Origin: Geosiphon pyriformis uo1 | Lineage: Eukaryota; Fungi; Glomeromycota | NCBI GenBank assembly: GCA_016748015.1 | Contig: JAAOMT010000239.1 | Location: forward strand, 547,554-611,553 | Reading direction: 5' to 3' | DNA: 64,000 nucleotides | In this document: one piece after another, positions 1 to 63,600 of the stretch | Numbering within the stretch: position 1 is the stretch's first letter | Layout: each line of letters begins with the position of its first letter | Translations under genes and position numbers: made by a program | Notes under the pieces: model-generated | What the model was told of the DNA's origin: nothing | Databases searched by the model: none | What the model saw: the letters and a program-made list of their open reading frames with translations, nothing else

Positions 1-1360
1 GTGGTTGTTGTTGCTGTTGTTGTTGGTTTGTGAAGTAGCTTTCAACTTTTTTTGTGAGTTGGTCTATCTTCTCTTCAGCTGCTGAGCTGGTTTCTCTAAT
101 TGCAAGGTTTACAAGCTTGGTGTGATTTGCTTCTTCCATTGCTATTTCATAGCTCTTTGCATGTCTAATAGCAGTTGCTAAGTCTGCTGGAGCATGTGGA
201 TGGACTTTCTTAATCAGTTTGTCTTTTAACTCTGCTATAAACTGATCCAGAATTTGAGCATCAGAATAGTAGTCATTGGTTTCCAATTGTCGGATTCGTC
301 TGAGAAGTTTGTTAAATCTTCCAAGATAGGTCATAACAGTTTTAGATGTTTCTTGTTTGATATTGTGAAAGTGGTTTCTGAGAGTGATAGAGGTATTGTT
401 GTCAGTAAATTGTTGTAAAAAAGCATCTTTGAATGCTTGCCAGTTTTCAAATGGTTTTTCTAAATTTTCAAACCATTCTTCTGCTGTTCCTTGGAGAAAA
501 TAGGGAATTGCTTTGAGCATTCTTGCTGCAATCCAACCATTTGCATCTCCTGCTTTTTGAACTTTGTCAAGCCATTCTTGAGAACTAGTATCATTGTCTT
601 CACCAGTGAATTCTGGGATTTTTGCAATGTAAGCAGTTGCCATTTCTTCTTTGTTTTCTGTAATTTCTTCTGGTTTTAATTCAGTTTCTTCACTTTCCAA
701 GCTTTCTGAATGATTACTTTCATTTTCCTGTAAGTAATCAATGATATTGGCACTTGTTGATATTGGTTTCTACTGTTGAGTAGGATTTTTAGGTGACTAA
801 AAATCTTCTAGTCTGGAGAAGCGGTTGAGTGATGAATTTGGTGTTTGTGGTTGAACAAATGAAATTGGAAATGGTGTAATAGAAAGTGGTAATTTGACAC
901 TGGTTCCTTGTTCAGGTGTTCGCAAGTGTTTGGCAGTTGTTTTTTGTAATGTTGGAGTGTTTGGAGTGGTTTTTGAGTATTGCTTCAATCTTTGTTTGCC
1001 TTTGTTGTCTGTTTCTGTCTTTGATTCAAAGTCAAAAAAGTATTTAGACTGTATTGGGTATTTTTCTTTACAATACTCAATAATGTTAAAATTAAGTTCT
1101 TGGAAGTAAATAGCAAGTGTTTCACTGTTCAGGTCTTCTGTTCCTAATTGTGAATAGTGCACTAAATTATTGTAGAGGTTGCTTTTAACTTCTGAAATGT
1201 TGTAGTTTCCAAAAAGATAATTGTTGATGCAGTTTTCAATGTATTAGTATACTGATTTCTTTACAACTTCAATTCCGTCTGAAATGTTGAATCTTTGTTT
1301 GCAGTGGGTGTAAATTGACTGGTAATACTCTAGAGTTGCTGTGTTTGGTATGGTTGCCAC
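1..1360 (-). pseudogene. Element A gag with GTG-started N-terminal extension (ATG at 643-641); premature stops
   Basis: ORF 797-1162 aligns with B ORF 10598-11422. Capsid start MATAYIAKIPEFTGE. Confidence 0.85.
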
Positions 1361-2704: not shown

Positions 2705-5700
2705 GTGACAGAATCAGAAAATATAGGAACAAACCATTTAGGATTCATGAAATCCTTGTTTTAACAATACAGCCAACAATTAGAATTAAACAGTAATTAT
2801 TATCTAGCCAAATCAGTCTTCAATTTCTATGTCAATGACAAAATTACTGAATACTTAAGAGGAACAGTTAACATTGAAGCAGCAAGAAAAAACTTTTACA
2901 CAGAATTATTTTAACACACCAACTTACCAAGAAACTATAGTTTCGCACCAATAATCAGAGAAATTAACCAAACTATTGAAAGGTACACTCAACAACAATT
3001 TCCTATTACCTATGCAGATAAAGGCAAAGGAAGGTTACAAACACCAGCAGTAATACTTAAAGAGATACAACTACCAACCTGGAAGAAACAAAGAATTGAA
3101 TCCCCACCATATCCATCATATCATCACACACCTGGAAGCACTATCAATATTTCATCGGCAGGCGCATTCACACCAAACGTGACATCAACATTTGGACAAT
3201 TTCCATTCCAAAGTAAACAAAAGAAAGCGGAGTTATTAAAACCATATGGCAAATATTTCAAGAGATTTAAATTATGATCACCAACGCCATCAGGAATTCA
3301 ATTACTGCCACCTCCACCAAATTTTGGAATCTCTGATTCATGGGAAATAACAGAATCAGAAGAAAAAGAAGAAAAAGAAACTGAGGATCAAGAATTCACT
3401 TACCAGAATCTGATCACTAAAAACCCGGAATTTGAAATCCCAAATCTTTAGAACCAGTAAAATTTAAATTCAATAAATTCAAAAGTTGAAACTCTGAATA
3501 TTCAGACACCGCCAACTCAAGATAATTGAAACCCTGATTTAATTAATCAACTAAACTTATCTCCAGTAATTGTTATCAATCAACCACCAATTGATTCAAT
3601 AGCCAAACCCATCCAGCAGCCACTTCAACTACCATCTCAACAAAATCAACAACCACTTCAACAGCCACCACAATCACCCAACTTAGATCCAATAGTCTAT
3701 GCACCAATTGCGAAATTGGATAATTTCACCAGCAAAAAGAACGATGCTCAAGTATGGCTGAACAATGTGGAAAAAGCCATCACAGCCAATGGATGGAATG
3801 ACATCTGAGCAATGCAAGCCATTCCCTATTTTTTCAAAGATACTGCCAATTTATGGTATTAGAGCTTGATTAATAAACCACAAGACTTCAATGCCTTCAA
3901 AGTGGAATTTTTAAGATATTTCAGCAACAATAATAGTATCAATTACCTAGTCAATACATTTATTACTATGAAGCAAGGAAAAATAGAAGCAGTCACCACT
4001 TATCTGGAACACTTTCATAGAAATTTGCACCAGATCCAGACAATTGATGCCAACTATTTTACAGTGCCACAGATCCTTAACCAGTTTATCTGTAGCCTGC
4101 ACAGCAGCATCTTGCAACATATATGCCCATTGCATCCAGGCACCCTTCAAGATACAATTACACATGCCAGAAATTTTGAATCAGCTGAGTCTAAGGCCAA
4201 CCACGCCCAAGCTGTTAATTTAGTGATGAACGGATCATCTGAATTGGACTCCAAATTGAAACAATTCAGTAATTCAATTAATCAAAAATTAGAAGAATAC
4301 TTAGCTGACAATTGTGCAATTTATCAACCACCTCAATGATGCAGCAATTTAAGAAACTACAATCATTCCCAAAATTAAGCACATCCCTCAACATCAGCCA
4401 ATCAGCAATGGCAGCCAGAGACACATGTCTACCACAACTGTGATAAACAAGAGCACATTAGAGCAAACTGCAATGCTTATAACCACCAGCGATTGGGAAA
4501 TTAATATAGAAACCCCGATCACCAATTTCAAACTCCAAGATATCAACAAAATCAGAAACAATATTAAAACACCTACTTGTCAATGATGCAGCAGCCAATT
4601 TACCAAGCACCAGTATATCAGACTCTAGTTTATCAACTGCAGCCACCAGCAATATATCAACCACAGCCACCAGTAATATATCAACTGCAGCCACAAGTAA
4701 TCTATCAACCCCAATCAATTCAGACACCACCCCAAAATTCAGTTAATATAACATCAGGCCACTCCAGACTTAGAATTACACAAAACTGGAGATCGACGAT
4801 GGTTGTCCACCAACTGATCTCCAGTTTTTTCAACTCACCATCAGGATTGCATTTTCGAAATTTGGGTACCAGTGCCACCCAAAACCCAAATTCTCAGAAC
4901 TATTTAAGTCTTCTGGTTACCCCAAAAGATGCCACCACCAACAATTCGGGACCCAACCAACAACAAACACTTACCAGCAACATTTCACCAACAACTGTCA
5001 CCAATGACGAATTGCTTGCAGCCATCTTTCTCTTTGACTTGGAAGAAACAATCAAAATTCTATTATTCAGTGGAGCAGCTTTGGAAGAAAAGCCAATCAC
5101 CACCATGTATACAGATGCCAAAATCAATGGCCATGCCATCAAACTAATCTTGGATAGTGGATCAGCTGGCAGCATCATAACAAGACAACTCATGGATCAG
5201 TTAGGTTGCTGAGTTGACCAAACTGCCAATGCAAGGATCATCACAGCTGATGGAGCAACCAAAACTCCAATAGGTGAAATAGACAACCTACCTATCAAAA
5301 TTAATAGCATCACAGTACCCATCAAAGTCTTTGTAATAGAAGCCACACAATACCAGGCTTTGGTGGGTAACAATTGGTTGTCAAAAACCCATGCTACCCT
5401 TGATTGGACCACCTAAGAACTACAATTAATCTTTGGTGGTCAGCATACTTAAACACCAGCCATTTGTGGCCACTTTAAGCCAAGCAATATTCAACTGCTC
5501 ATCAAGTTCGAAAAAGAAACAAGGAAACCGACCTGGGAAGCCTACCAAGTCTCATGGACTGATGAAGACCACAACAAGCTATCACTGATACTTTCTTGGG
5601 ACAATAAGGGAAAAGGGAAGGAAAACAAGAAACTTATCTGGAAAACCAACCAAAACTGAGAAATGGATAATGACCAAGACAAACCAGCCAACTGGAAGTG

Positions 5701-8700
5701 GGAAGAAACTGATAAGGGAAAGAAGAAAGAAGAAAAAACCACTCTCATCAACAGCACTTAGAGTTCAGACATGTACACTTTATCACCACCAACCAATTAT
5801 CATTGACCAAAATTGGAATGCATTAATTGTGGCAAGAAATTGTTAACAATGAGTGCATGCTGTGGCGACAATGAGGAATACTCCACGGCCACAAGATTTT
5901 ACTGCCGCCCATGTATCATAGAACACTTTGAATGACCAAAACAACAAGGAAAGTGGGATAACCAACCATGTCTCACATATGGAACTATTCTACCAGACAA
6001 AGAAATATGGAGTGACATTCCTGGGCATGGAGGAACGTGTAATAAGACATGTCAGTACACTATACTAATAAATAATTGGATAAGCAAAGAAACACCAATT
6101 GATGACACCTGGAAATGAGCATTGCAATGATTGGAAGGATATTCCCACGACAAAGACGAACTATGGAGAATGGCGTATGCAAAAGTAGAAGGCGTGACAA
6201 CCAGCAAACTACTAGAGATAAAAAATAATCCTTTATCACTTCCCGAACTCAAATATGAGCAAACTTTTGACATCTTTGGCAACATTGAGGATGACCTCGA
6301 AGAATTTTATAAACATTATCAGCATTTGGCACCTACTAGGAAAGAACAAGAGCAATGTTTAGAGCAGTTGAATACTCGATTATGTCAACATTGCTTAATC
6401 CCATGTGACTTTCAGTATTGTAATGAGTGTGATCTCATCTACAATCCACCACCACGCATGATCTACACAATCCCAAAGGAAAAGGAACCAATCAGCAGTT
6501 GCACATCAGAATCAGAATTACTGTTTGATCCCGATTCAAACTCCAACAACGATGATAACAAAAACACTGGTTCCAGCTCTGTCCAATATGATGAGAGAAA
6601 TAACAATGATTCCAACTCAGATTTAAACTCCGATCCAAATTATGGACAATATATTGCACTTCCTGACCTCACCAAGGAACAGGAACTTAAATGGTTCAAC
6701 AATAATAATGAAGGTATTATGTCAGAATGCATGCATGATACTGATGCTGGGTTTGATTTGAGGTATTCAGGAAAAAATGCCATCAAATTGGAACCACATT
6801 CACACATCTGCCTGGATTTGAAAATAGCACTGGAAATTCTGACAACAACAATGGTTCAATTAGCATTTAGGAATAGTTTAATAAAAAGAGGAATTAATAT
6901 AAGAGGAGGAATAATTGATGCTGGATATGTGGAAAATATTATTACTATGCTACAAAATGACTCAGAAAAGGCTTATATAATAGAGCCCAACAAAAAAATA
7001 GCACAGACAATATTTCTGCCTCTGGTTAGAGTAGCTCAGTTAGTATCAGTGGGAAAGAGGGAGGAATTAGGAATAACAGTAAGAGGGATACAGAGATTCG
7101 GATCGACAGGTAAAGTAGATGTACCAGTCAATATGGCAGAAAAAGAAATTGTTGACCAAGAGAAAATTATCTCAACAGGTCAAACAATTTTCATTCCACC
7201 ATATGGCCAGTACATAATAGGAATAAAGCAAGAAGTAAAAGAACAAAATCAGATTTTTGAAGCAAAACCAACCCTTTGTGAATCAGGAAAGATTGAACTT
7301 ATCAATCTCTATATACCAGCCAAAGATTACAGCCACATCAAAATTCCCATCTACAATAACACAGGAAATGTCATAGTAATACCAGCCAGAATCACTATTG
7401 GATACTTAAGCACTGAAATAGAAGATTAATCACCAAGCACCATTCCGGACTTTCTACAGCTTTGTGGATATGTCAATATCACATCACAAATGATATATGG
7501 ATAAAGCAAATGTTATTTGCTCCAACCAGAACAATTAGAACAAATAAACATGAGAAACTTAGATCCACTCCAATGTATGCAACTTAAGATGTTGCTCAAC
7601 AATTTCAACAACATCTTTGTCAGCAAAAACAAGTTTGGCCAAACGGACATCATTCAGCATTAGATCAAGACTAGAGATGCAATGCCAATTAAACAAAGAG
7701 TATACAGAGTACTACCAGCTAGTCACAAGATTATCCATTAAGAGATAAATTGAATGTTTGACAACAGGCTAATTTAGCCATCAATAAATCCATGGTTATC
7801 ACCAGTGGTATTCATCTGGAAAAAGAATAGGAAAATCCGCTTTTGTGTGGATTATAGAAAACTCAATAGAGTAACTCATGGAGATAGCTACCTCACTCCA
7901 CGGATCTAAGAATTATTTGATGCTTTTAGTGGAAACAAATAGTTTTCAACATTAAACCTGGACAATAGTTACTGGCAAGTAGCCATGGACCCAGCTGACA
8001 AAGAAAAGACAGCATTTATCACCAGAAAAGAGAATTTTGAATTTGAAGTAATGCCATTTGGCTTAACCAATGCATCAGCCACTTTCCAATAGCTAATGAA
8101 AATTGTTTATATGGGCTTATTATGAAAATCAGTAGTTGTATACTTAGACAACACCAATGTATTCTCAAAAACATTTGATGATCATCTTCATCATCTTCAA
8201 CAAGTGTTCAAAAGACTAAAAAGAGCAGGACTAAAGTTAAATACAACAAAGTGCTTTTTTGGCAAGACAGAACTAAAATTCTTGGGACACATAGTCAGCA
8301 AAGATGGCATTAAAACAGATCCAGAGAAAATAGAGATAGTAAAAAACTTTCTAATGCCAACCAATATGACAGAACTGAAATCATTTTTAAGATTTGCCAG
8401 CTATTATCAACATTTTATCAAGAACCTTTCCAAGATAGTGCAGCCACTCAACCAACTGCAAATCAAAAATACAAAATATGAATGAACAGAAAGTCAACAA
8501 GAAGCTTTTGATATTCTGAAAAGAAAGCTTATTCAAACTTCAGTACTGATCTATCCAGATCACAGCAAACCATTTATCATTACTACTAATGCATCTGGCC
8601 AAGCATTGAGAGCAGTACTATCTCAGAGAGGACCAAACGGCAGAGAACATCCAGTAGCATATGCCAGCAGAGATTTAACACCAGCTGAAAAGAACTATGG

Positions 8701-9006: not shown

Positions 9007-9573
9007 ATGAACATACAAAAATATTAACAACTGCTACATTATATAAACACTCAACAGTTCAAGGAGAATTTATCTCAAACAGAATGAAAGAATATCAAAC
9101 AACAATCAAAATATTTTATCACTTACCAAAATATACTTTATCAGAAAAATAGAAGAAATCTAGAGCAACCAACCAGAGTAATTACAGAGCCAGAAAAAGA
9201 GACAATATTATTCAACATGCACTCAAATCCAACAGCAGAACACTTTTACAAAGAAGTAACTATGGAAAGAACCAGAAAAAGATACTATTGACCATTAATA
9301 TATCCAGACATCATCCAAAATTGTGATGCTTGTCAGCGAAGAGAAGGTATAAAACCCAGTGAACCATTAAGACCAATCAAAGTGGGACAACCATTCAACC
9401 ATATTGGAATTGATTTAGTCAGACCATTAACAATTACCAGCGGAAAAAACAGATACATAGCAGTAACCATAGACTATCTCACTAAATGGCCAGAGACAAA
9501 AGCAATTCAAAGAGCGGATGCAGAATCCATTGCCAAATTCATTCATCAAGATTTAATTTGTTGACATGGATGT
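9007..9573 (+). pseudogene. Element C integrase, N-terminal part (separate ORF with own ATG), interrupted by B
   Basis: HHCC zinc motif and GIDLV...DYLTKWPE core start. Confidence 0.88.
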
Positions 9574-10552
9574 TGTTACCAGATGAAATTAGAGATATTA
9601 TTTAGTATGAAACTATCTTATAATTCTTATCATTAATTAGCATATATTATCATTTCAAATTATCACTTATAACATTAGCAAAAATGTCCGAAATTATCAT
9701 TAATTAATAACCCAAATTGTACACAACACAAATGTAACCTAATTGCGATGATCAATCATGCAATACCCCGAACTATGTAACATTCAGAAGTTCGCCAAAA
9801 TTTGTAGAAATTCGCTGAAATAATTGATAGTTCACCGAAATATCTAATAGTTCGCCAAAATAACTTGTAGTTTGCCGAAATGTATCTTTAGTTCAGCGAA
9901 ATTGTAGAAAATAGCAAAGTTCAAGTTCATAGAATAGTGTTACAACAAGTTGTATAAAAGAAGAGCTTCTCTCTCCAAGAAAATGTATCTTACCTTAGAT
10001 TTATCTCTTAAAACTGTTCCTATATACACAAAAAAAAATAAATATCAAATAATTCGAAAAACCAAATTCTTTAATTATTGTACTTGAAAAATTCCCAAAA
10101 CCCAACTAACATTTCGAAATTGATTAGCTATCAATTTCAGTAAACTGTTAGTGACTCCAGGCCTGGATAGAAAACGTTTCTCTTGACAAAATTCTATTTT
10201 TTTTACATTTCTTTTAGTTTTCTTTTCTTTTCTTATTACAATTATTAGGGTAGCCTACAGACGAGATTCCTGTAGAAGAGTTGACTTTCACAGCAAAGTA
10301 ACTACACATTTTTAGTGAGCTTCCAGACGAACAATTTCTAGGAAAGAGTTGACATTTACTACAACATAACTACATAAAGTAACTGGCAAGGAATTGGCTA
10401 TTCCACTCATAAGCCCAGCAAGTTCAAATTATAGGAGATAATTTGAAGATAAATTCAGTTACTAGAGGTTCAACCACATTCAGAAAACGTGAATTCACAG
10501 CAAATAAGTATCAACAACATTACAGAAAAGAGACCAAAAACCTTCGATAACA
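9574..10552 (+). repeat. 5' LTR of element B
   Basis: Direct repeat of 15811-16789 with TG...CA termini. Confidence 0.95.
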
Positions 10553-10554
10553 TT

Positions 10555-10570
10555 TGGTGCTCTCCCACGG
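10555..10570 (+). promoter_or_regulatory. Primer binding site of B (TGGTGCTCTCCCACGG)
   Basis: 2 nt after the LTR end. Confidence 0.82.
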
Positions 10571-10597
10571 GAATAACACAGCAAAAACAAATTCAAA

Positions 10598-13500
10598 GTG
10601 GCGACCACACCAGTTGCAACAACTCTAGAGTATTACCAATCAATTTACACCCACTGCAAGCAAAGATTCAACATTCCAGACGGAATTGAAGTTGTCAAGA
10701 AATCAGTATACCAATACATTGAAAACCGCATCAACAATTATCTTTTTGGAAATTACAATATCTCAGAAGTCAGAAGCAACCTTTACAATAATTTAGTACA
10801 CTATTCACAGTTGGGAACTGAAGACCTTAATAGTGAAACACTTGCCACTTACTTTTACGAACTTAATTTTAACATTATCAAATACTGTGAAAAAACATAT
10901 CTAGTGCAATCTCAATACACTATTGATTTTGAATCAGAAACAGAAACAAGCAACAAAAACAAATTAAAGCAATATTCAAGAACCACCCCAAATACTCCAA
11001 CACTACCAAAAACAATTGCCAAACATTTACAAACACCTGAACAAGGAACCAGCTCAAAACTTCCACTTACTATCACACCTTTTCCAGCCTCACTTGTACA
11101 AGCACAAACACCTAATTCACACTTGAATCGATTTGCAAGACCAGAAGATTTTACATCACTCAGAAGTCCCACCAGACAACAAGAACCCCTTCAAACTAGT
11201 TCCAATCTCCTTGATTTTCTAGCTGAAAATCAAAGTGAACACTCTGAGACAGCAGCAAACAAAGAAAACAACTCTAAAATAACCAAAGAAGAATCAATAG
11301 ACAGTGAAAACAAAATGACAACATACATCGCAAAAATTCCTGAATTCAATGGAGAAGATATTGAGACCAGTCCCCAAGAATGGCTTGACCAAGTTACTAA
11401 AGCTGGAGATGCAAATGGATGAAACACTGCCAGAATGTTAAGAACAATTCCCTACTTTCTTAAAGGAACAGCAGAAGAATGGTTTAAAAACCTTGCCACC
11501 CCATTCAATGATTGGAATGCTTTCAAAGCAGCCTTCCTTGAACAGTTCACTGACAATAATACCTCTATCACTCTTCGCAATCATTTTTGAAATATCAAAC
11601 AAGAACCCTCCGAATCTGTTATGACTTATATTGGGAAATTCAACAAACTTCTCAGATGGATTCGCCAACTCGAGACAAACGATTATTATTTCGATGCTCA
11701 AATCTTGGATCAATTTATTGCTGGTCTAAAAGATAAACTAATTAAAAAGGTTTGCCCACATGTGCCAGAAGATTTAAACTCTGCAATACAGTATGTGAAA
11801 AGATACGAAATGGCCATAGAAGAAGCCAATCATACAAAACTTGTAAATTTGGCAATTGGAGAACCCAGTTCAGCAGCTGAGGAAAAAATTGACCAACTCA
11901 CAAAGAAGGTCAAAAACTATTTTACTAACCAACAACAACAACAACCCCAAAGATATCAACCACCTCAAAGACAAAATCAAAATAACTTTGCACCACTTTC
12001 CAATAACCAGCCCCAGAATTGCCATTACTGTGGAATCTCTGGCCACTGGAAAAGAGATTGCAGAAAGCTGCAACGAGACCAACAAAATAGGGGTAATCAA
12101 CATTACTCTCTACCACAGCAATCTTATTATTAACCATTACCACCAGCTTACTATCCACCAAGACCCCAATACCAAAATAACTATTATCAGCCTGCCCCAC
12201 AACCAATCCAACAGCAATACCAACAACCACCCACACAACATTATCAAGTACCTGCTCAAAGACTGATTACACAAAATCAATTCACACCACAAAACCAATA
12301 CCAAGTAAACAACATTAGAATCAGTTCAAACAACCAATTGGTTCCCCGAAATACCACTCAACCAAGATCCAACCATTACTACACTCAACCCAGTTATTTA
12401 ACAATGCCAGAAGAACAGGATTTTCACCATACTGCACCCTCGGAAGGTAAAGCTACAGCACAACAACAACAAAACCCTTCTTATAACCACATCACTATTC
12501 CACCAGTCCGAATTGCTGAAAATGCCAATCTCTCTGATATCTTTCCTTTTGAATTTGAAGCAAATAAATCACCATTCTTGCTTAGCAATGCAACAGCTAA
12601 TGAGCAAAAAGCCATCACTGCAATGTACGCAGAAGCTGAAGTAGAAGGAAAGCCAATTTGCTTGATCTTAGACAGTGGATCTGCCGGAAGCATTATTACC
12701 TACCAGTTAATGCAACAATTGAAAAGAAATGTCGACCGACCAGCTCAAACAGTAATCGTCACTGCTGATGGCATGAAAAAAACTCCAGTAGGAGAAATTG
12801 ACAATTTTCCATTCACTCTTGATGGAATCACCATTTCAGTCAAAGTTCTTATAATAGACGCACCCCAGTACCAAGCTCTCATCGGAAATGATTGGCTTCA
12901 AAAAGCCAATGCTAATCTGAATTGGGAAACACAAGAGTTAACAATCTCCTACCAAGGACAACATGCCCGAGTATCTGCCATTTGTGGTACATTCAACAAA
13001 CGCTCTGAAAAAGCCCTGGCTTTTGAATTTGAACCAAAAGAAGAAAAACCAATAATCGAAACATTCATGGCTCTTGGATCAACATCCAACTGGGCCGATG
13101 AAACAGAACAAGAACATTTTACTCCACACACTAAACCCAAAATCTCTGGATGGAATATACCTTACTCAAAACCTGAACCAAGAAAACAATGCCCTTATAT
13201 TCCCCTTAAATGTAAGGACTGTCACAAGAAACTATCGTCAATGGGAGCCTGCATTTCACCTGAAGAAGAATATGAGAATCATACTTGTTATTACTGCAAG
13301 GCTTGCCACAGAGAGCGATGGGGCCATCTAATAAAAAGGAGCGGAAAATAGGACAACACCCCTTGTTTGACTTGTGGAGATATGCTACCAGAAGAATGCA
13401 ATTGGATTGATATAGCAATGAAAGGAGGCATCTGCGATCAGACCTGCCAATATGCTTTATCAATTTCAGAAAAAGTAAAAAGAGGAACACTCTTTAATGC

Positions 13501-15260
13501 AGCATACAACAGTGCTCTCAACAAACTTTATCATTACCCTTATGATGCCGAGATGATTTTCGACTTAGCAATGGCATTAATTAATGGAACTACCAAAGAA
13601 GATATTCGTCAAATGAAGAAAGCAGAATACATTGAATACACTATAGAATTAGCTGGATTCAATTACGAAGATGAAGTAGAAGTCTATCACCAAATTGCAA
13701 GTTACATCTACCCGACCCAAGAAGCTCAAATTCAACGATTAGAGCAAATGAACATTAGGCTATGTGAAGAATGCATTATGCCTTGCGATGAACAATGGTG
13801 TCCTGAATGCTATGCTCTTAGTATCCCCTTGCCCAGCAAAAATGATGAGAATGAAATTGAATTTGGAGAACCTGAAGAAATGGAAGAAATTGAAACAACA
13901 CCCATCTACCTTATCAAAAATCAGCCTGTCTTACAACTTAAATACTTCAACAACAATGAACAAGGAATAAAACTTGAAAAAGCACACGAAATTAATGCTG
14001 GATATGACCTAAGATATCCAGGCAAGGATACTCTTGTTCTCAAACCCAAATCTCTCACAAAAATCAACCTCAAAATTGCACTTGAAATTCCGCCAGGAGT
14101 CATGATTTAAATCGTCTCTCGGTCCTCTCTAGCAAGCAAAAGAATTAATGTCAGAGGAGGAATAATCGATGCTGGATACACTGAAGACATAACAGTGATG
14201 CTTCAAAATGAAACTGACAAACTATTCAAGATTGAACATGCTGAAAAAATTGCCCAAGCTATTTACCTACCCTTAATCAACATTTCGGGTTTGCAACTAG
14301 TCAATCAAAGAGAACAATTAGGAAAAAGCGATAGAGGAACCCAAGGCTTTGGTTCAACTGGACAATTCACAGTTCCAGTTAATATAGCTCTTAATATACA
14401 GAACAAATCCCACCAAATTCTCAGACTTCCATAACCGATTACCATTTCACCCTTTGGAGAACATCCAGAAATTTACACTTGCATAAAGCCAACAACCACA
14501 CAACAAATTTTTGAGTCCAATGAACAAGTCTGCTTGGAACATAATATTTTGATCCCAAACATTTATATTCCAGAAGGAACAAAGAAAGTCTGAGTTACTT
14601 TTTACAACCCCAATAATTACCCCATAATTTTATTAAATAATTTAGAAATTGGAGTTATTCACAGTAATATATTTCAACAAGAATTACCCCAAACAGTCCC
14701 CAATTTCCCTGAAATTATTGGACATTCACTACCAAAAATCAACTTAAATCCCAGCTCCGAAAACTACCATGTTGTCATGAGAAAACTATCTCGAATTAAC
14801 ATGGGACAACTTGAACCACAACAACAGACCCAGCTCAAAGAGCTAATTGCAGAATTTGCTGATATCTTCGCCGAAAACAACAATGACTTAGGAAGAACTG
14901 ATTTGGTTCAACACCAAATCTATACAGGAGATGCCAAACCAAGGTGACAACAAGTTTACCGAGTTGCTCCAGAAAGTCACCAATTTATCCGAAAAGAAGT
15001 ACAATGGATGCTTAACAATGGGCTTATTCAACCATCAATGAGCCCATGGGCCTCATCTGTGGTTCTAGTTAAGAAAAAAAATGGAAAGATACGATTTTGT
15101 GTTGATTACCGACAACTTAACAGTGTCACTATTGGGGATGCCTACCCTCTTCTCCGAATTGATGACATGTTGGATGCCCTTGGAAAGTCCAAATACTTTT
15201 CAACATTAGATTTAGAGAGTGGATACTGACAAGTTGCTATGGATCCCAAAGACCGCCCCA
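10598..15260 (+). pseudogene. Element B polyprotein: GTG extension-Gag (CCHC knuckle)-PR-Cys-rich-dUTPase-RT N-terminus, truncated by deletion
   Basis: ORFs at 10598, 11621, 12338, 13367, 14195 and 15008 share a frame. Motifs CHYCGISGHWKRDC, LILDSGS, AGYDL, RGTQGFGSTG, RFCVDYR. Confidence 0.92.
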
Positions 15261-15842
15261 AATTCACGAAAATATCACCTGTATAAAAAGAAAACAAGAA
15301 GTTATACTGGAATTCACCTGCCAGAACTTTTAAAGCTTGCTTTAAGAGAAAACCTAATGTTCACTCCAATTAGTATTCCACCAAATGCTACAATTCAACA
15401 AAAACTTCAACTGTGTCTCAATGAGGAAAACACTGAATATCCTCCAATCTATAGATATTTTCACATTGGAAAAACACTTTATAAATAGAAACTGGAACTT
15501 ATAACAACAAACCTCACAAAAGAAGCTATTCAGAAACAACTCCACAATGAATTCAAGACAACAGCTGGATCAACAAACAGTTGCTACAGGCTTAGAGCTG
15601 CTCTTAGATTTTATGACCTATTCCACACCTGTGAAAACGTACTACAAAACCCAATTTTTCAACTTTTGAAGATTCAATACATTGAAAAGCTCACAAAACT
15701 GAAATTTTAACAATTTTCAGACCAAATTTCTTCAATAATTTTGGATTATTATCTGGAAATAACAGACAGTACTTGGATTTCGATGGAGCTCAGTCTTAAG
15801 GAGGAGGTTATGTTACCAGACGAAATTAGAGATATCATTTAG
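15261..15842 (+). pseudogene. Element B ORF3 remnant (unknown helical protein), running into the 3' LTR
   Basis: YFHIGKTL...AALRFYDLF...IEKLTKLKF pattern shared with the other ORF3s. Confidence 0.65.
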
Positions 15843-16789
15843 CATGAAACTATCTTATAATTCCTATCATTAATTAGCATATATTATCGTTTCAAATTAT
15901 TACTTATGACATTAGCAAAAATGTCTGAAATTATCATTAATTAATAACCCAAATTGTACACAACACAAATGTAACCTAATTGCGATGATCAATCATGCAA
16001 TACCCCGAACTATGTAACATTCAGAAGTTCGCCAAAATTTGTAGAAATCCACCGAAATAATTGATAGTTCACTGAAATATCTAATAGTTTGCCAAAATAA
16101 CTTGTAGTTCGCCGAAATGTATCTTTAGTTCAGCGAAATTGTAGAAAATAGCAAAGTTCAAGTTCATAGAATAGTGTTACAACAAGTTGTATAAAAAAAG
16201 AGCTTCTTTCTCCAAGAAAATGTATCTTACCTTAGATTTATCTCTTAAAACCGTTCCTATATACACAAAAAAAAAAATATATCAAATAATTCGAAAAACC
16301 AAATTCTTTAATTATTGTACTTGGAAAATTCCCAAAACCCAACTAACATTTCAAAATTGATTAGCTACCAATTTCAGTAAACTGTTAGTGACTCCAGGCC
16401 TGGATAGAAAACGTTTCTCTTGACAAAATTCTATTTTTTTTACATTTCTTTTAGTTTCCTTTTCTTTTCTTATTACAATTATTAGGGTAGCCTACAGACG
16501 AGATTTCTGTAGAAGAGTTGACTTTCACAGCAAAGTAACTACACATTTTTAGTGAGCTTCCAGACAAACAATTTCTGGAAAAGAGTTGACGTTTACTACA
16601 ATGTAACTACATAAAGTAACTGGCAAGGAATTGGCCATTCCACTCATAAGCCCAGCAAGTTCAAATTATAGGAGATAATTTGAAGATAAATTCAGTTACT
16701 GGAGGTTCAACCACATCCAGAAAACGTGAATTCACAGCAAATAAGTATCAACAACATTACAGAAAAAAGACCAAAAACCTCCAGTAACA
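15811..16789 (+). repeat. 3' LTR of element B, preceded by PPT AAGGAGGAGG (15798-15807)
   Basis: Direct repeat of 9574-10552. Confidence 0.95.
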
Positions 16790-18296: not shown

Positions 18297-19180
18297 TGTT
18301 ACTCATAGAATATAAGAAATATAGTATTATTAGTCAATAAATATTAGCCAATCAGATATAGACATAGTAAATGTGGAATTCCAAGATTTCTCTCAAAGGA
18401 ATTGCAGAATTCCAGGAATTTCAGAATTCTCCAACAAAAAATCGCAGAATTCCAGAATTCCAGAATTCCTCTCATCAGAAATTGCAGGATTTCAGGAATT
18501 CCAAGATTCCTGTTACAAAAAATTAAGGAATTGAGGAATCTTAAATATGTATATATAGCAGTAGCATTAAAAGCAGAAAAGACAGAATTGACACTAAGAA
18601 CTCTTAGCTTAGTTACCACAATCCTCAAATAAATAACTATTCACTATATCAAATTCATTCTTCACTATCAACACTTCATGTTGATAGTAATTGATACTTA
18701 ACTATACTAGAACAATAGCTCTTGATCACGGCTATTGATGGGATACTAACTTGTAAATTATCTTGGCTTATTTCTTATTTTTTTTTTTTATCTTTTCTTT
18801 ATTTTCTTTGTTGTCTACTAACTTGATTAAAAAATTTATTCTTGGAACACTTATGGAGGAATAAAACTTAATTAAACAATACTTACTCTTGGAGAACTTA
18901 CAGAGGAACTGACGTCAGGAAACAGCACTGGTATATACTTATGGAGGATATCATACTAGGAAAATCATCAACCATTAAGCTAAGCAAGCAATTGATGAAA
19001 CTACAGTTTCAGAAAACTATTAATAAACTGTTATCTTTGAATCTTTGTCTATTATACAAAGAACTCAATTGGAAAAACCTTCAGACAAAATACCTTCAGA
19101 TTATCATTGTTACCAATCACTTTGAGCACCAAGTTATGGGTTTGTTATTTACATGACACCCCAAAAAAACATCTGTAACA
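18297..19180 (+). repeat. 3' LTR of element C (884 bp) with GGAATTCCA/CAGGATTC tandem array
   Basis: TGTTACTC...TGTAACA termini; purine tract at 18282-18293; U3 shared with the D LTR. Confidence 0.93.
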
Positions 19181-23335: not shown

Positions 23336-24256
23336 ATGGAAAACAAAGAAATTAAAAGAACAACTCGTCCATACGCTCATAATTGCAATGAGTGTCGAGG
23401 GTGTCAACAGAGTATTAAAGATGATAGTAATAATTGTTGTAGAGAATGCTGGTTCATGTTTTTTGAAAAAAATTATAAAGACTTTTCAAGTGGTAACGAA
23501 GAAGTTGATAAAATAATTAAGAATCCAATCTATATTCCACCTAATCAATCTGATAATTGGTATGGTAGATTGAATTACTATGAATGGATTCCATGGGAAC
23601 GTTTGTTGTATATCAACGAAATTGCTAGAGGAGGGTTTGGTATAATTTATAAAGCAACTCTAATTGATGGATTAATTGATCTATATAGTATAAAACATCA
23701 TGGTTCATTGGAATTTGAAAGAGAAAGAATAGACATAGAAGTAGCAATAAAAATTATAAAAACGAACAGTTCAGAAGTGATTAAAGAGGTAAATAAAGTA
23801 TTATTATTTATATCTATATATTTAATTCATTTTTAATTAATTCATATTTACCTATTATTTATTTACTATATATATTATTTATTTACTTAATCTTTTTTTA
23901 CACTGTGTTTTGATAGTTAAATATTCAAAGAGCTATGTTTATTAATAACGGTGAATATGGAAGTTCTTATGTCTCTAAAATATTGGGGATTACGCGAAAC
24001 GCTGAAACACTCGAGTATGGAATTGTGATGGAGTTTGCCGAACATGGAGATATGCGAAAATATTTATCAACAAATTTTCATTCTACGAGTTGGAAAGATA
24101 AATTACAGATCGCGTACCGTATAGCTTCTGGACTTTCTTCAATTCATTCTTCTGGTATGGTTCATCGTGACCTACATTCGGGCAACATCCTACAATTATA
24201 CACTGATGTGGTAACTATTGGAGACCTCGGATTATGTCAACCTACAAACCATGAAG

Positions 24257-24287
<31 letters not shown>

Positions 24288-24915
24288 AACAACAGAGGAA
24301 AAAAAGATATTTGGAGTGATTCCATATATTCCACCAGAAGTTTTAAGAGGAGAAGAGTTTACAACAGCTGGTGATATTTATAGTTATGGAATGTTATTAT
24401 GGGAATTATCAATAGGAAAACCTCCTTTTCATGATTGTCCTCATGACGAAATCCTTATAATGGCTATTTTAAATGGTCAAAGACCTAATATTACCTCCCC
24501 ACTTATTCCACCTCCAATTGCCGAAATAATTATAAAGTGTTGGGATCCTAATCCTAAGAATCGTCCTACTGCCATAGAGGTTAAAGATAAGTTTTGGGAA
24601 CTTTTTAAGTTGTATTGGAATAATATTAATATTAATATTAATAAGTTTAAAAGATGGATATACTTTGGGAAATCAAATAAACTTATAAGAAAAACAGCAA
24701 AAAATGACTCGACAACAACAAAGATAGGAATTCATCCAGAAGCAGTTTATACAAGTCGTCTTTTAACTGCTCAAATGGTCAATTTTTCAACAGGTTTGTT
24801 TATTTAATTTATAAAATGATTCATTTTATTTGCTTTAATTACATATTTTAACTTTCTTTTTAAAGAATTAGTCTATTTACCTGAGAGTAACAAAGTTGAA
24901 GAAAATTTTGAATGA
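23336..24915 (+). CDS. Tyrosine-kinase-like (TKL) protein kinase, about 459 aa; exons 23336-23788, 23917-24793, 24866-24915
   Basis: Motifs RGGFG, VAIK, HRDLHSGN, GDLG, YIPPE, DIYSYG; N-terminal CxxC pairs. GT-AG introns keep the frame. Third exon is less certain. Confidence 0.9.
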
Positions 24916-27074: not shown

Positions 27075-27614
27075 TGTTACGGTTTAAAAATTTAGTAAAA
27101 AGAATCATAAAAATAATACAAACTATTCAATCATAATATAGCACAGTAATAATCTTAGAAAGGTAATGATTAACATAGTAGCAAACACCATCTCGCAATA
27201 GTGATAAGCACCAGTTCACAATAGCAGCCAACACCAACTGGTGATAGCAGCAAACACCAGATTGAAATATCAAAAAAAGAAAGTATTACAATGTGTTTTC
27301 TCGTAGAACTACAAACATGTATATATACAATAGTTTTAATATTGGGAAATAATCAATCAAGTAATAAAAATCATAACTTATCAAGCAATAGATCCAATTT
27401 TATCCAACAAACTCCACTTTAAATCATACTTTCAAATTAAATATCCCAAGAAACCTTTAAAATTAAAAAGAAATGAAAAAGAATATTTAAAACTAAACTA
27501 TCACAACCCAAAGTATTAAGAAACTTACTTGTATTATTTATTGAATGAAACTATCATTCATTAACTGAATCCTTTGGAAGAATAATCCTTGATCAAGATT
27601 ATTCACATTGTTAC
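27075..27614 (+). repeat. 5' LTR of E, truncated (U5 and PBS missing)
   Basis: About 97% identical to 34405-34851 and 35349-35452, then jumps into coding sequence. Confidence 0.88.
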
Positions 27615-30600
27615 CTGTCTCTTATAATCCATCGAGAAATTGAGCAATACACCAACAAAAATTTTCCAATATCCACAGGAAACACTAGGGAATATGCCAA
27701 CAAAACCAAAGAAAATTTAGAAACTAATCAGGAAAGTAACCAGCAAAAACTAGAAACACCAGCTCAAACGCCAAAGAAAACTGTCACTCAATCAATAAAA
27801 AAACAACGTATTTATTCACTAGAAGATAAATCATACCATTTTTCACCAGAAAATAAGATACAAATTCCATTAGAAGCTGCATCATTATTAACATCAACTC
27901 CACAAATGCCAAGAACTCTTAGTTATACTGATAAAATTAAACAACATAACTGGGGAGACATACCAATTACAGGAGGATATTCATTACTATTCCAAAACCC
28001 TTTTTTTCAGCCAAAATTTAGAACAGGGTTTGAAAACCATGAAGAGGAGTCTGAATCGGAATCTGAAAAAGAGACCAGTAAAAAAACAATCACAAGACCA
28101 GTCACTGGAACAAACAGCCAGTCCAGAAACCAAGAAACTTGTGATCAAGAGAAAGAACTGGATATAAGGGAAGCCACCTTTAGGAATGCTCAAGGAAATA
28201 TCATCTCACCTCCTCTTAGACCAATAAACCCACCAGCAGAAAATGGCAACGAAATGACCACATCATACATTGCAAGACTAACAGATTTCTCAGGAGAGGA
28301 AGAAGAAATGGACATGCACACATGGCTCAGAGAAGCACAAAAAGCCATCCAGGCAAATAACTGGAATGACCAAAAAGCAATTCAAACATTATCTTTCTTC
28401 CTGAAAGGCACAGACGACTTGTGGTATCAAAGCCTGGAAACAAAACCCACGAGCTTTGCCAAATTTAAAAATGCACTTCTGGAGTATTTTAGTGACCCAA
28501 ACGCCATAATCCAACTACAGAACAAATTCAATACTATCAAGCAAAATACTGGTGAAACTGTCACCCAATACCTTGTTCGATTCAATCAAATTCGCCATCA
28601 GATTAAAGCAATTAAACAAGGATACTACACTGATTCTCAAGTTTTAAATCAGTTTATTAGAGGATTAAAAAGCAGCATTTTAAAAAGAGTATGCCCTGCC
28701 CACCCTAATTCCTTACCAGAAGCCATTACACTCGCCAGAGCCTTTGAATCAGCTGAGAAAGAAGCTAACCATAGTCAAATAGTTAACATGGTAATGGAGG
28801 AAAATAAGACAGAAACATTAGAGAAAAGAGTAATGCGATTAGAAGAGGAACTCTCTAAGAAAATAGAAAGTTACCTCATCCCGAATCTGAGAAAAAATAC
28901 ATACCAACCACCTCAAAGACGCAGCCAGGAAGTTAGTAACAGTTGAAATAATCACTCGTCGCACCAGGAATTCAGAACAGAAACACGCACCTGCCATTTT
29001 TGCAAATGCGTAGGACATTTGATTAGTCAATGTTGAACGCGAATGATGCAGAAAGCATGCGAAAATAATTACTACATGCCACCCCAAATGCCCAGAAACC
29101 AGTACATGCCAATACCATGCCAATATCTCACCATGTATTAAAATCAAAGAGCTTACCAGCAACAGCCCATGATAGCCAACCTGAATTGGTGTCCTGAGGC
29201 CCAAAATCAGCCCATGTGGAACCAGAACGTGTTAGTTTAGAGGAATCCAAACCGCGCCGGAACCAATCAGCAAACCAATCCAAACTACCAAAATTATCAA
29301 CAAACTTACCTTAATATACTGGAAAATCTGATTATCGGAAACAATGATGGTAGAAACATAAACAGAACCAAAAATTCCTCTAAATTGAGCCAGACAATAC
29401 CACCAGCAGTTGCCACCGAAGATAGCAGCCTCGCAGCTATTTTTCTTTTTGAATTAGAGGAAAACAAGGCTATGTTCAGTGGAGCAGCATTGGATGAAAA
29501 ACGCCCAATCACTACTATGTATACGGAAGCCACTGTAAACAATACCCCAATCAAACTTATCTTAGACAGTGGATCCACTGCAAGCATCATAACGCTTCAA
29601 CTAGTAAACCAACTGGGTTTCAAAGTTAATTGTGCCATGACATCCCAAATTATAACAGCCGATGGAAGTACAAAGCTGTCTCATGGCGAAATCGACTCAT
29701 TCTCTTTCGAAATTAATGGTATAGTAATACCTACAAAAGTATTAGTAATGGATGCTACACAATATCAAGCATTAGTAGAGAATAACTGGTTAACAAAAGC
29801 CAACGCCACCCTAGACTGGACCACCCAAGAGCTTCTGATCAATTATAATGGCCACCAGGCCAAAATTCCAGCCACTTGTGGCCACTTCCAAAAACCCAGC
29901 ACCAACCAAAGACCTATCTTCGAATTTGAGGAAAATCCAGCACTACCAGCCATTGAAATCTATTAGCTCTCTTGGGCTGATGACCAAAAAACAGAACTAC
30001 CAGCCATACCAACGTGGACCAGTGAAGAAAGATCCGAATGGAACCAGGTAAGTTCACAAAGAAACTACCAGCGACGCAGACCATAGCTAGAATGCTCGGT
30101 TTGTAAGAAGAAACTCTTGTCTATGACTGCGTGCAGCACACCAGACAAAAACCCAAGAAACCCCACCCACTACTATTGTAACTGTTGTAATAAAAAAAAA
30201 TACGGTTATCCAGAAAGACACGGAAAATGGGATGAGGAACCGTGTCTCGCTTGTGGAGAACCATTACCAAGAGGATGTAACTGGAATAACATACCAGACA
30301 AAGGAGGAACGTGTGACGCAACTTGCCAATACACGATCCTCATCTGTGACTGGGTAAGAAAAAGAATGCCGTTCGAAGCAGCATTCAACAGAGTGTTAAA
30401 AAGATTACAGCACTACCCACATGACGAGGACGAGCTGTACAACACCACACAAACCAAAGTAAGAGGAGGAACTGCCGAAGAAATACAATGTTGGAAAGAG
30501 TCAGCCGAAGTAGCTGACGAAATCGCCAGCTACAATATGTTCGACCCAGTGGACAAATTCCAGGACTACTACCAACAACTATGCCCCACTTAACAAGAGC

Positions 30601-40741: not shown

Positions 40742-40853
40742 GACAAAAGGGTTATTAGTTAACAAAAACTTTTTCTTCAGAAAATAACTTGTTGGGGTTT
40801 TTGGGAGTAAAAGAGAAAAAAGTTTTTTTATTGGTTAATTTTAACAATTATTA

Positions 40854-45997: not shown

Positions 45998-46003
45998 TAA
46001 AAG

Positions 46004-46020
46004 TGGTGCTTCCTGTGAGG
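46004..46020 (+). promoter_or_regulatory. Primer binding site of F (TGGTGCTTCCTGTGAGG)
   Basis: Same type as the C and D PBS; 6 nt after the LTR. Confidence 0.82.
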
Positions 46021-46069
46021 TTGTCAAAATTCACTTATTCCTTTATTGTATGAGTGATTACTCATATCT

Positions 46070-52991: not shown

Positions 52992-52995
52992 ATAT

Positions 52996-58420: not shown

Positions 58421-59521
58421 TATTACTTATAAAAAAAAATACCAAAAAATTTAAAAAAAACAGATTATAAAATAGACCAATAGAAGAATAATACTTAAAG
58501 AATAAACATATTTTTAGAAAATTATAACACATTTTTAAGAATAAGCATATTTTTTGAAAGTAATATAGAAAAAAAGTAGAAATATATAGAATCTTGTATA
58601 ATATAAATTATGTATATATAGCAAAAGTATTAAAAACAGAAAAAACAAAACAATAATAAAAACAGTAATTAGAGATAAATAATTATCTAATATCTCTTTC
58701 TTTAAATAATAATTTTCTATAACTTGAAATAGAATTATACCCATATTAATAAAAATATCTATTATTATCTAAATCTATATTATTATTGCTTAAATAAGAA
58801 ATATTAATTACTTTTGTACTATCAACAATTTATGTTAATAAAATTCAATACTTAACTTTACTGAACTAATAACTCTTAATTATAGCTATTGACAAGATAT
58901 TAATTTTTTATTTTTTATTTTATTTTTATTTTATTTTTTTATTTTCTTTTGTTTTGTTTTCTTTGTTGTTTACTAATTAATTAAAAAATTAAATACTAAT
59001 TAATTGACATTAAAGATAGTCTAATAAAAAACTCATAGAACAAAAATAAAAAAACTTAAAGATAGCTTACTAGAAAAGCACAACTGCCAAAATAAATCAG
59101 TTATTATACTGAAAACAAAAATTAGAAAAAACCATTGATAAAATTTTTGTCTATTATACAAAAAACTCAACCAAAACTTTTAGACTCCAAAACCTTCAGA
59201 AATTACTATCAAACTTAACTATTGAACATCAAGTTATGAATTTGTTATTTACTCTAACATTTCAAATAATTATCTGTAATACTTGGTATTTCCTATAAAA
59301 TATAATTTAACAAAAAACCAATACTAATATTAACTATTCAGAAAAGTGGCAAACCAAAAAAGCATAAAAAAAATCATTTAGAATTTGCAAAATTTTTATT
59401 TTAATATTACCAAACTCATTTTGGATTAACAAATAATTATTGGCCAGTAGAATTAGCTTTTAAATTCTATGTAAAAAAAAATTATACATTATTTGAAAGG
59501 CCAAAAAATTTCAGAAGCCAC
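58421..59521 (+). mobile_element. Heavily decayed C/D-related element G: LTR 58421-59281, PBS relic, start of gag extension
   Basis: TATTACTTATAAAA equals TGTTACTCATAGAA with transitions only; ends CTGTAATA; PBS relic TGGTATTTCCTATAAAA; AAAAGTGGC at 59342. Confidence 0.75.
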
Positions 59522-60629: not shown

Positions 60630-63600
60630 GTGGCAGAATCAGAAAATATAGGAGCAAACCATTTAAGATTCGCAAAATTCTTATTTCAACACTATTGTCA
60701 ATACTTGGGATTAAATCACAATTATATATCCGCTGAATCAGCCTTCAATTTCTACATTAATGAAAAGATTTTTTTTTTATTAAGAACACCAGTGAATACT
60801 GAATCAGCAAGAGAAACTTTCTATAGGGAATTAATTCAAAATACCAACCTGTCAACAAATCATAATTTCGCATCCATCATCACTGAGATCAACAAAAAAA
60901 TTGAACACTACACTCAACAAAGATATCCAATTACATACGCTAGTAAAGGCAAGGGAAAATTACAAACACCAGCAGTAATACCCAGAAAATTACAGCCACC
61001 TGCTTGGAAGAAAAACAGAGTTGAATCCCCAAGCAACCCATCTTACCACTATACATCTGGAAGTGCCATCAACATATCATCAACTGACGCGTTCTCATCA
61101 ACTGCAACATCAGCATTTGGACAATACCCATTCCAAAGTAGACAAAGGAAAACAGAATTGTTAAAACCATACGGCGAATACTTTGAGAGATTTAATTTGC
61201 AATCATCAACCCCATCAGGACTTTGATCACCACCACCTCCACCAGATTTTGGAATCTCTGATCCATGGGAAGCAGCAGAATCAGAAAAAGAGGAAGAAGA
61301 ATCAGAGGATCAAGAATTTACTTACCAAAAACCCGATCACTGAAAGCCCAGAAGTTGAAATCCTGGAAGTTGAAACCCCAAATCTTCAAGCTCAGCAAAA
61401 TTTAAATATAGAAAATTCGGAAATTAAAACTCTGAATCAGCAAAGACAGAACAATTCAAAACCCAAATTAATTAATCAGCAAAACTTACCTCCGATAATC
61501 ATCATCGATCAACTGCCGATTAATCCAGTAGCCGAACCTATACAACAGCCACTTCAACTATCATCCCAACAACTACTTCAACAGCCACCACAACCATCTA
61601 ACTTTGACCCAATGGCCTATGCACCCATCACAAAACTCGACAACTTTACTGGTGAAGAGGATGATGCTTAAGTATGGCTGAATAATGTAGAAAAAGCCAT
61701 TACAGCCAACGGATGGAATGATGCCTGAGCCATGCAAGCCATTCCCTACTTTCTCAAAGATACCACCAATTCATGGTATCAGAGCTTGGTTAATAAACCA
61801 CAAGATTTCAATGCCTTCAAAGTGGAATTCCTAAGATACTTCAGCAACAACAATAGCATTAATCGCCTAGTCAATACATTTACCACCATAAAACAAGGAG
61901 AAACTGAAGCAGTCACCACTTACCTGGAATGCTTCCATCGAAACTTGCGCCAAATTCAAGCAATTGATGACGACTATTTCACAGCACCACAGATACTTAA
62001 CCAGTTTATCCATGGCCTATGCAGCAGTATCTTGCAACATATATATCTGTTGCATCCTGGCATGCTTCAAAACACAGTCACACACGCCAAAGATTTTGAA
62101 TCTGCTGAGTCAGAGGCTAACCATGCCTAAGCTGTTAATCTAATAATGAATAGATCATCTGAATTGGATTCTAAATTGGAGAAGTTCAGTGAATTAATCA
62201 ATAAGAGATTGGAAGGATACTTAACTGACAATCACACCATTTATCAGCCTCCACAATGACACAATAACCAAGGACATTCTAATCATGGCCAAAATCAACC
62301 GTGTCCATCTTTATCAACCAATCAACAGTGGCAACAAAAAATGCGTATCTGCCACTATTGTGGTAACCAAGGACATATCCAAATTGACTGTTATCAGCAT
62401 TTAAATAACCAACGATCGGAAAATCAATATCGAAACCCTGATCACTGGTTCCAAACTCCAAATCATTATCCAAATCAAAGTCAAGACCAATATTGGAATA
62501 ATTACCTGCCAATAACACAGCAACCAATCTATCAACTGCCAGTATATCAACCTCCAATTTATCAACCGCAGCCACAAGTAATATATCAACCACAGCCACA
62601 AATTATTTATCAACCCCAACCAATTCAAACACCACTTCAGAATCCAGCTCAAATGACATCAGACAACCCTCAATCCAGAGTCACTCAAAACTGGAGATCG
62701 GCGATAGTTGTTCACCAACCAATTCCCCATTCACTAGACTTACCATTAAGATCACGCACCTAGAATTTGAATACCAGTCGCGTCCAAAACCCAAATTCCC
62801 AACATTATTTAAGTCTCCTGGTTACCCCAGAAAATGCCACATCCAACAACACAGAATCCAATTAGCATATACCTACCAACACAATTCTACTGGCAACCAT
62901 CTCTAGCGACAAATCCCTAGCAGCCATCTTTCTTTTCAAACTCGAAGAAAACACACCAATACTATTATTTAGTGGAGCCACCCTCAAAGAGAAACCCATA
63001 ACAGCAATATACATGGATGTCAGAGTTGATGGTCACCCCATCAAACTCATCCTAAATAGTGGATCAGCTGGCAGTATAATCACACGAAAACTCATAGATC
63101 AATTAGGTCACCAAGTTGATTGAGCTGCCAGCACCAGAATCATCACAGCCAATGGAGCGACCAAAACTCCAATCAGTGAAATCGACGAGTTTCCTTTTGA
63201 AGTCAATGGCATCATGACTCCCATTAAAGTTCTAGTAATGGAAGCCACTCAATACCAAGCTCTCGTTGGTAATGACTGGCTATCCAAAGTTAATGCAACG
63301 TTAAACTGGAACACCCAAGAACTCTAGCTAACGTATTAGGGCCAACACATAGGTGTTCTGGCCATGTGTGGCCACTTCAAAATGCCTCCAAGAAAAAAAC
63401 TATGGATTGAACTGGAGGAGGAGAAAGAAAAGCCTATCTGGGAAGCCTACCAAGTATTGTGGGCTAATGAAGAGCACAACGAGCTGCCGCCAATACTCTC
63501 CTGGGATAACAACAACAAGAAAAAAGGGAAACAAAAGGAAGAACTTACCTGGGAAACTGATGACCTGACATGGATCGACAACGATGAGAGTGAACTGACT

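Follow-up and report, generated by a model that had tools for sequence, protein, structure and literature searches.

Several described systems make a longer and a shorter protein from one RNA by combining a non-AUG start codon with a downstream AUG. Murine leukaemia virus (MLV), a mouse retrovirus, produces glyco-Gag (gPr80) from an in-frame CUG upstream of the Gag AUG on unspliced RNA; the 88-residue extension carries a signal peptide, and the product is membrane-bound and glycosylated (PMC3423011, PMC3542737). PEG10, a host gene domesticated from Ty3/Gypsy-derived sequence, gives a Gag-like protein from an upstream CUG (adding 34 residues) as well as from an AUG, as shown by mutation, and employs a -1 frameshift (PMC2800197). 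In rice tungro bacilliform virus, which has separate open reading frames (ORFs) I and II and a structured leader whose upstream ORFs (uORFs) are shunted, about 10% of initiation occurs at a non-AUG codon and the remaining ribosomes scan about 900 nucleotides (nt) of AUG-free coding sequence (PMC5902531). The long terminal repeat (LTR) retrotransposon Ty1 also yields a long and a short Gag from one frame, but its p22, which restricts transposition, is described as arising from AUG starts on an internal RNA, with no non-AUG start in that account (PMC5408680). Dual Gag initiation at non-AUG codons is thus known from gammaretroviruses and one domesticated gene. A literature search covering mostly abstracts and open papers found no case of a mobile Ty3/Gypsy element whose Gag starts at a non-AUG codon, and only general transposon surveys turned up for elements of Geosiphon pyriformis. 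Here we describe such a candidate in 64,000 nt of the genome of this fungus (contig JAAOMT010000239.1, positions 547,554 to 611,553; hereafter the window). The element of interest, B (9574-16789), is a decayed Ty3/Gypsy LTR retrotransposon in which a long N-terminal Gag extension likely starts at a GUG codon. Judging from sequence comparisons, we favour leaky scanning as the probable mechanism, whereby the minor product would be a long Gag(-Pol) initiated at the GUG and the major product a short form initiated at the AUG.

ATG is purged from the leader and Gag extension

The nucleotide statistics presented here rest on the element copies within the window and on contigs of one DNA sample. A first-pass annotation had reported that B contains no ATG from 9986 to 11314, and this was borne out: after ATG 9983 the next is ATG 11315, leaving a 1332-nt gap that is the longest on the plus strand (the next is 594 nt), and the longest on the minus strand (1060 nt) falls in a related copy, A. 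The ATG-free stretch of 1329 nt (9986..11314) spans R/U5, primer-binding site (PBS) and Gag extension. When counted against dinucleotide shuffles, as that annotation had proposed, the depletion was confirmed, although its guess of 15-20 expected ATGs was too high: shuffles give 12.4 +/- 2.8, and none of 2000 reaches zero. Both halves are depleted, with 0 against 4.8 expected in R/U5 plus PBS (9/2000 shuffles) and 0 against 7.3 in the extension (1/2000). Elsewhere in B the counts are at expectation (U3, 8 against 7.7; gag, 15 against 16.8; pol, 77 against 74.0). ATG is the most depleted of all 64 trinucleotides (z = -4.4). Its antisense word, CAT, is low across the whole element including gag and pol, so that CAT scarcity is no marker of the ATG-free region.

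Two relevant families are present in the window, A/B and C/D/G. Copy A, on the minus strand, shows a similar depletion (1 ATG against 6.0 expected, and 1 against 7.6). In the second family the extension of D has 2 ATGs against 13.0 (0/2000 shuffles) and that of C is more weakly depleted, with 7 against 11.6 (91/2000). The two out-of-frame ATGs attributed to D at first pass are present but are not specific to it, being common to C; the further claim that two ATGs of C (3012 and 3246) read ACG in D was confirmed.

The avoidance extends to the choice of neighbouring codons. Codon shuffles of the B extension predict 5.3 out-of-frame ATGs where there are none (P = 0.003), and codon pairs that would form an out-of-frame AUG are avoided in the extensions: an NAY codon is followed by a codon starting with G in 9 of 152 cases, compared with 141 of 643 for other codons (p = 9e-7; for B and D alone, 7/105 against 96/453, p = 2.5e-4). 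No avoidance of this kind is seen beyond the capsid ATG (61/261 against 293/1090, p = 0.27). The same contrast is seen in annotated proteins, whose copies are not independent: methionine accounts for 5 of 15267 extension residues and 162 of 9786 capsid residues in 67 B-family proteins, and for 8 of 5061 and 34 of 2457, respectively, in 21 D-family proteins. The purge stops at the capsid Met, a residue that A, B, D and a further element, E, all have, though the preceding linkers differ. Such a pattern would be expected of ribosomes that have to scan through the extension before they arrive at this AUG.

A GTG codon is the family state at the head of the extension

The candidate start, AAA-GTG-G (10595..10601), has its GTG at 10598; position -3 is A and position +4 is G. 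As had been reported, the motif AAAGTG(G/A)C stands at the matching place in A (GTG 1360, minus strand), C (2705), G (59346) and D (60630); the 8-mer has five further matches elsewhere in the window. The in-frame spacing of 717 nt from GTG to capsid ATG holds in both A and B. An in-frame stop said to lie just upstream is present in B (TAA 10574) but is polymorphic and not a constant of the family, the site reading Gln in 18 and His in 1 of the 19 annotated copies that run through it. Further upstream, TGA 10490 is common to A, B and the 3' LTR, with no ATG between it and the GTG.

The consensus was examined for an ATG at this codon and none was found, in agreement with the proposal that GTG is the family codon. 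Among 521 contigs of one DNA run aligned on 10548-10660, positions 10592-10600 show no variant at >=1% depth; in the same contigs the CpG adjoining the GTG has decayed (28% and 35%) and other, non-CpG G positions vary by 1-2%. Because this background variation is low, the invariance indicates fixation and not additional selection. In annotated copies of the two families the position is Val in 175 of 221 (Met in 19) and in 104 of 127 (Met in 14). The Met cases are scattered over the tree, and gene predictors favour Met. In a quick, unfinished tree of the D family (118 rows) the 13 Met rows need 10 changes, a number as low being reached in 7 of 500 shuffles. Seven of these rows fall within one 23-row subfamily (P0200, P0204, P0214, P0232, P0368, P0374 and P0416) and may represent a sub-lineage that reverted to AUG.

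Lys stands ahead of Val in 169 of 175 and 88 of 104 copies (Thr in 12 of the latter), so that A at -3 is kept, and +4 is G; both families begin K-V-A despite only about 21% identity. The spacer between PBS and GTG behaves differently. Its three frames lead into Val in 36, 15 and 13 of 171 B-family copies (107 other or spliced) and in 66, 15 and 9 of 114 D-family copies (24 other). Since all three frames join Val in different copies, the reading frame is anchored at the GTG and the spacer is not coding. Some of the shifts may be homopolymer errors, and five second-frame D rows share one 7-row tree group.

The extension is under coding constraint

The extension of B comprises 239 codons, from GTG 10598 to ATG 11315, and is under coding constraint in the Gag frame. 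Between B and A the ratio of non-synonymous to synonymous differences (pN/pS) in that frame is 0.52 (confidence interval (CI) 0.39-0.70), compared with 1.0 and 1.4 in the other two frames and 1.58 for U5 read in the Gag frame. By part, it is 0.34 in the first 115 codons (the N-domain), 0.65 in the linker and 0.25 in the capsid; between D and C the N-domain gives 0.64 (0.41-0.93). These values include neutral decay after insertion, and the true constraint is therefore probably stronger. The B and A extensions differ by two indels of 6 nt each, and none of 5000 shuffles of the extension is stop-free. With CpG-type changes removed, differences are in excess at third codon positions in both comparisons (43/31/61 for B/A, p = 0.006; 42/28/58 for D/C, p = 0.005). 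A pN/pS of 0.56 (CI 0.32-0.96) in frame +1 of U5 was rejected as chance, being one of three frames and showing no third-position excess.

The extension is predicted to contain a four-helix domain

Structure prediction of the extension, a check suggested at first pass, returned a four-helix domain in both families, with matching helix patterns. In B (residues 5-108; 10610..10921) the AlphaFold2 model has helices at 5-24, 31-50, 56-69 and 79-108 with a mean predicted local distance difference test score (pLDDT) of 84.5; in D the helices lie at 2-25, 33-50, 57-71 and 81-98 (mean pLDDT 76.9). The two models are built from overlapping alignments and are hence not independent. The A/B and C/D N-domains align colinearly, with 21% identity over 92 columns (E = 3e-4). 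The domain is followed by a Met-free linker of about 130 codons (10922..11314), rich in S/T-P and first basic, then acidic.

Pfam gave no match to the extension, and Foldseek at E 0.001 found none for the fold in PDB or BFVD, the weak matches being no evidence of a new fold. With VIA-align, all Z scores were under 8 and no retroviral matrix appeared among the top 50 rows; the best scores (7.0 and 7.4) were to unrelated helical proteins. The extension contains no signal peptide or membrane segment, the top 19-residue hydropathy being 0.52 in B and 0.79 in D. Retroviral matrix (MA) is described as lying N-terminal to capsid (PMC6525542), and the predicted helical domain occupies the same position; a matrix-like role for it is speculative.

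Probable leaky scanning from GUG to AUG and its alternatives

The proposal that a GUG-started long Gag(-Pol) accompanies an AUG-started short one is supported by the family state of the GTG, the coding constraint and the anchoring of the frame at that codon, from which the two isoforms are inferred. Under leaky scanning, capped RNA would start near 9985, about 30 nt past a TATA-like box (9953..9959) and where the ATG-free stretch opens, so that ATG 9983 would be at or beside the cap and skipped; short leaders are reported to be leaky for initiation (PMC3542737). Ribosomes would then scan a leader of about 610 nt to GUG 10598, where a minority would initiate in strong context to make a long Gag(-Pol) bearing the four-helix domain, and the rest would continue to AUG 11315, which has A at -3, to make the short form. 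Non-AUG codons are reported to initiate at roughly 2-30%, and an A-3/G+4 context is what they require (PMC3542737); conserved near-cognate starts have been found in fungi (PMC5487733). Because Gag and Pol share one frame, both isoforms would carry Pol and the Gag:Pol ratio would not be set in this way. Instead, dual initiation would determine the number of subunits that bear the extra domain. The long form, speculatively, may make up a small part of the particle and use its helical domain and linker as a matrix-like targeting or accessory module. The fuller reading, in which two deeply diverged, very high-copy Ty3/Gypsy families set the ratio of their two Gag(-Pol) proteins by an obligatory GUG and place an undescribed four-helix domain in the matrix position on only a fraction of capsid subunits, is one that we put forward tentatively, at somewhat less than even chances.

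A number of observations weigh against leaky scanning. The sequence pattern of glyco-Gag-type dual initiation is found in A/B; C and D share two out-of-frame ATGs within the extension, both in weak context (pyrimidine at -3). The C/D/G leaders carry ATGs (in D, 4 against 8.3 expected; 79/2000 shuffles), including one in good context that stands 108 nt upstream of the GTG and is present in each of the four LTR copies of the window. It is in frame with the GTG and closed by a stop within the PBS. Of 31 annotated copies, 21 have Thr at this codon, 9 have Met and 1 has Ile, so it may be a product of CpG decay; 26 further gene models begin at a Met of this type. The pN/pS of the whole extension between D and C is 0.74 with a CI passing 1 (0.59-1.04), the linker alone lacks a significant third-position excess, and profile homology between the families is modest (probability 39%). 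Element F (45358-46520) has a C/D-type PBS but an unrelated, shorter pre-capsid region with three ATGs and no AAAGTG, and so is without the GTG arrangement. The 80 nt after the GUG form no stable hairpin (-0.5 to -6.7 kcal/mol), unphased variants at 10614-10616 permit an out-of-frame ATG in at most about 22% of family depth, and the conserved ATG 9983 would be a uORF start if the transcript began well upstream. Finally, the annotated proteins are gene predictions on decayed copies, neither independent nor unbiased.

The strongest alternative, though we think it unlikely, is that the true Gag is the long form begun at GUG, and that the capsid AUG serves mainly on a separate, internally initiated RNA or marks only a protease cleavage site. 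The truncated Gag of Ty1 comes from internal and not genomic RNA (PMC5408680), and the Met at the capsid head, conserved in three families, fits any use of the site. Such a scheme does not predict a purge of out-of-frame AUGs across the whole 714-nt extension, however, and ribosomes that scan would get to 11315 regardless, the GUG being weak and no AUG lying in between.

Splicing is slightly less probable still. Were the AG within AAAG|TG spliced to a donor at the end of the LTR, A|TG would be assembled and the PBS dropped, which would make the conserved motif an acceptor. The base before GTAACA is A in copy A and in the 3' LTR of B, the gene models of a few copies contain this join (e.g. P0097 and P0349), and branch-point-like words as well as T-rich tracts occur in the LTRs. 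However, T precedes the donor in C, D and G and no ATG would be formed; the acceptor would be AAG within a spacer rich in A, and in B a CAG already stands 17 nt before it; and a strong AUG start would make the downstream AUG purge needless.

We regard as improbable, and a little more so than splicing, that translation of the extension begins at a different near-cognate codon, or depends on internal entry or shunting in place of linear scanning. The 610-nt leader before the GTG, the in-frame ATA and ATC in the C/D spacer and the AUGs in C/D leaders would suit such a route, and shunting is known in pararetroviruses (PMC5902531). Yet from PBS to helix 1, which begins at most 5 residues from Val, GTG 10598 is the sole in-frame CTG, GTG, TTG or ACG in B, the spacer frames vary, and the B leader is AUG-free and weakly structured (-6 to -20 kcal/mol per 150 nt), as scanning predicts.

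A plain 5' untranslated region (UTR) before AUG 11315, with the open frame a relic, would also be AUG-free and would account for the lack of a Pfam family, but is very improbable and largely refuted by the Gag-frame-specific pN/pS of 0.34-0.64 in two families, A/B indels in multiples of 3, the shuffles and the confident predicted fold. Least credible of all is a mutational or assembly artefact, in which ATG became GTG or biased decay removed ATGs: C>T and G>A changes are indeed heavy in these decayed copies, but the GTG is fixed in the family, which refutes such an origin for that codon, ATG counts in U3, gag and pol are normal, and CpG decay makes ATG and does not remove it.

Anatomy and setting of element B

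Element B lies on the plus strand in a CpG-poor nest of decayed LTR and non-LTR retroelements. It is flanked by 979-bp LTRs (9574..10552 and 15811..16789; 96.2% identity) with TG...CA ends and a 4-bp target duplication, ATGT. The PBS (10555..10572) begins TGG 2 bases past the LTR, the usual place in LTR elements. A tRNA gene search of the whole window found none, and an Rfam scan of 9500-11500 gave 0 matches. The last upstream ATG (9983..9985) is kept in A, the 3' LTR and a solo LTR and opens a uORF of 34 codons in B and 46 in A (1974, minus strand) and the 3' LTR (16220). The GT of this uORF also resembles a splice donor; a word similar to a branch point stands at 10105 and an AG at 10128. 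A T-rich tract is present in B (10197-10260), and the C/D LTRs have T-rich tracts and TACTAAC/TACTAAT words (18730-18860 and 60120-60240); these tracts are possibly leader introns or polyadenylation elements.

A single frame runs from 10577 through capsid, zinc knuckle, protease, a dUTPase-like region and the start of reverse transcriptase (RT), interrupted by decay stops only. The first ATG after the gap (11315..11317) encodes the Met heading the Gag capsid, which with its CCHC zinc knuckle spans 11315..12070 and contains two decay stops; the aspartic protease follows at 12632..12895. The stop separating Gag from protease in B is Gln in family proteins. In B, Pfam matched zf-CCHC and protease; in A, it matched Retrotrans_gag and Ty3_capsid. 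The RT of B is cut short near 15300, where it runs into the 3' end, and neither RNase H nor integrase is seen in 14000-15810, making B a deleted copy. Element E shows the full Pol order of protease, RT, RNase H and integrase, and the latter two occur in elements neighbouring B. A copia order is excluded by the position of the protease directly ahead of dUTPase and RT, that is, with protease and RT flanking the dUTPase. Both families have a dUTPase between these two domains (13352-14400 and 6131-7429), preceded by a Cys-rich region without a Pfam match.

In protein searches, 354 of the 360 rows listed (the best 120 of 280, 120 of 156 and 120 of 298 matches) were hypothetical proteins of Geosiphon pyriformis. 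A profile search matched 337 proteins, of which the best 150 were listed, and relatives with DNA context sought in viral and metagenome contigs gave none.

Among the other copies, A runs from GTG 1360 to ATG 643 (643..1360, minus strand) with 78.5% identity to B. On the plus strand, C (2705..3694) has 329 codons, its capsid Met decayed to ATA 3692; D (60630..61614) has its capsid ATG at 61612 and one decay frameshift; and G is a heavily decayed C/D-family fragment that retains the GTG (59346..59348). Element E (27075-28946) contains a diverged C/D-type extension (HH probability 96%) and has lost its PBS and extension start. A decayed solo-LTR-like copy of the A/B family lies within AT-rich DNA at 54493-55145. 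The stretches 40000-45300 and 52400-59400 are very AT-rich (11-21% GC) and include heavily decayed element relics, which suggests strong C-to-T decay going beyond CpG. A protein kinase ORF stands amid the elements at 23917-24807.

Comparison with known systems

In its LTRs with TG...CA ends, PBS, target duplication, Ty3-type capsid, CCHC knuckle and an aspartic protease before RT, element B has the features of Ty3/Gypsy elements (Metaviridae). It departs from typical members in its long, ATG-less N-terminal Gag extension and in the dUTPase between protease and RT. PMC4600332 was considered as a precedent and rejected, as it deals with a Pol ORF behind a Gag stop.

The dual-start trick itself is not new. 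If our reading is true, it would be shown outside retroviruses, in a mobile Ty3/Gypsy element, and would reveal a Gag domain missed by ATG-based annotation; here, the annotation gets to it through introns invented in hundreds of gene models. An ATG-free leader, avoidance of NAY-G pairs and third-position bias upstream of annotated gag would together provide a cheap screening signature for LTR families.

The analogy with MLV glyco-Gag drawn in the first-pass annotation holds for the translation scheme but not for the type of protein: lacking a signal peptide or membrane segment, the protein here is not a glyco-Gag. In place of a CUG and a short membrane-directing extension, these fungal LTR retrotransposons have a GUG, an extension of 240-330 residues with no hydrophobic segment and a predicted four-helix domain. 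Unlike PEG10, they are high-copy mobile families with Gag and Pol in a single frame and an extra domain predicted to be folded. In contrast to rice tungro bacilliform virus, they have one in-frame extension in place of separate ORFs, preceded in the A/B family by an AUG-free leader.

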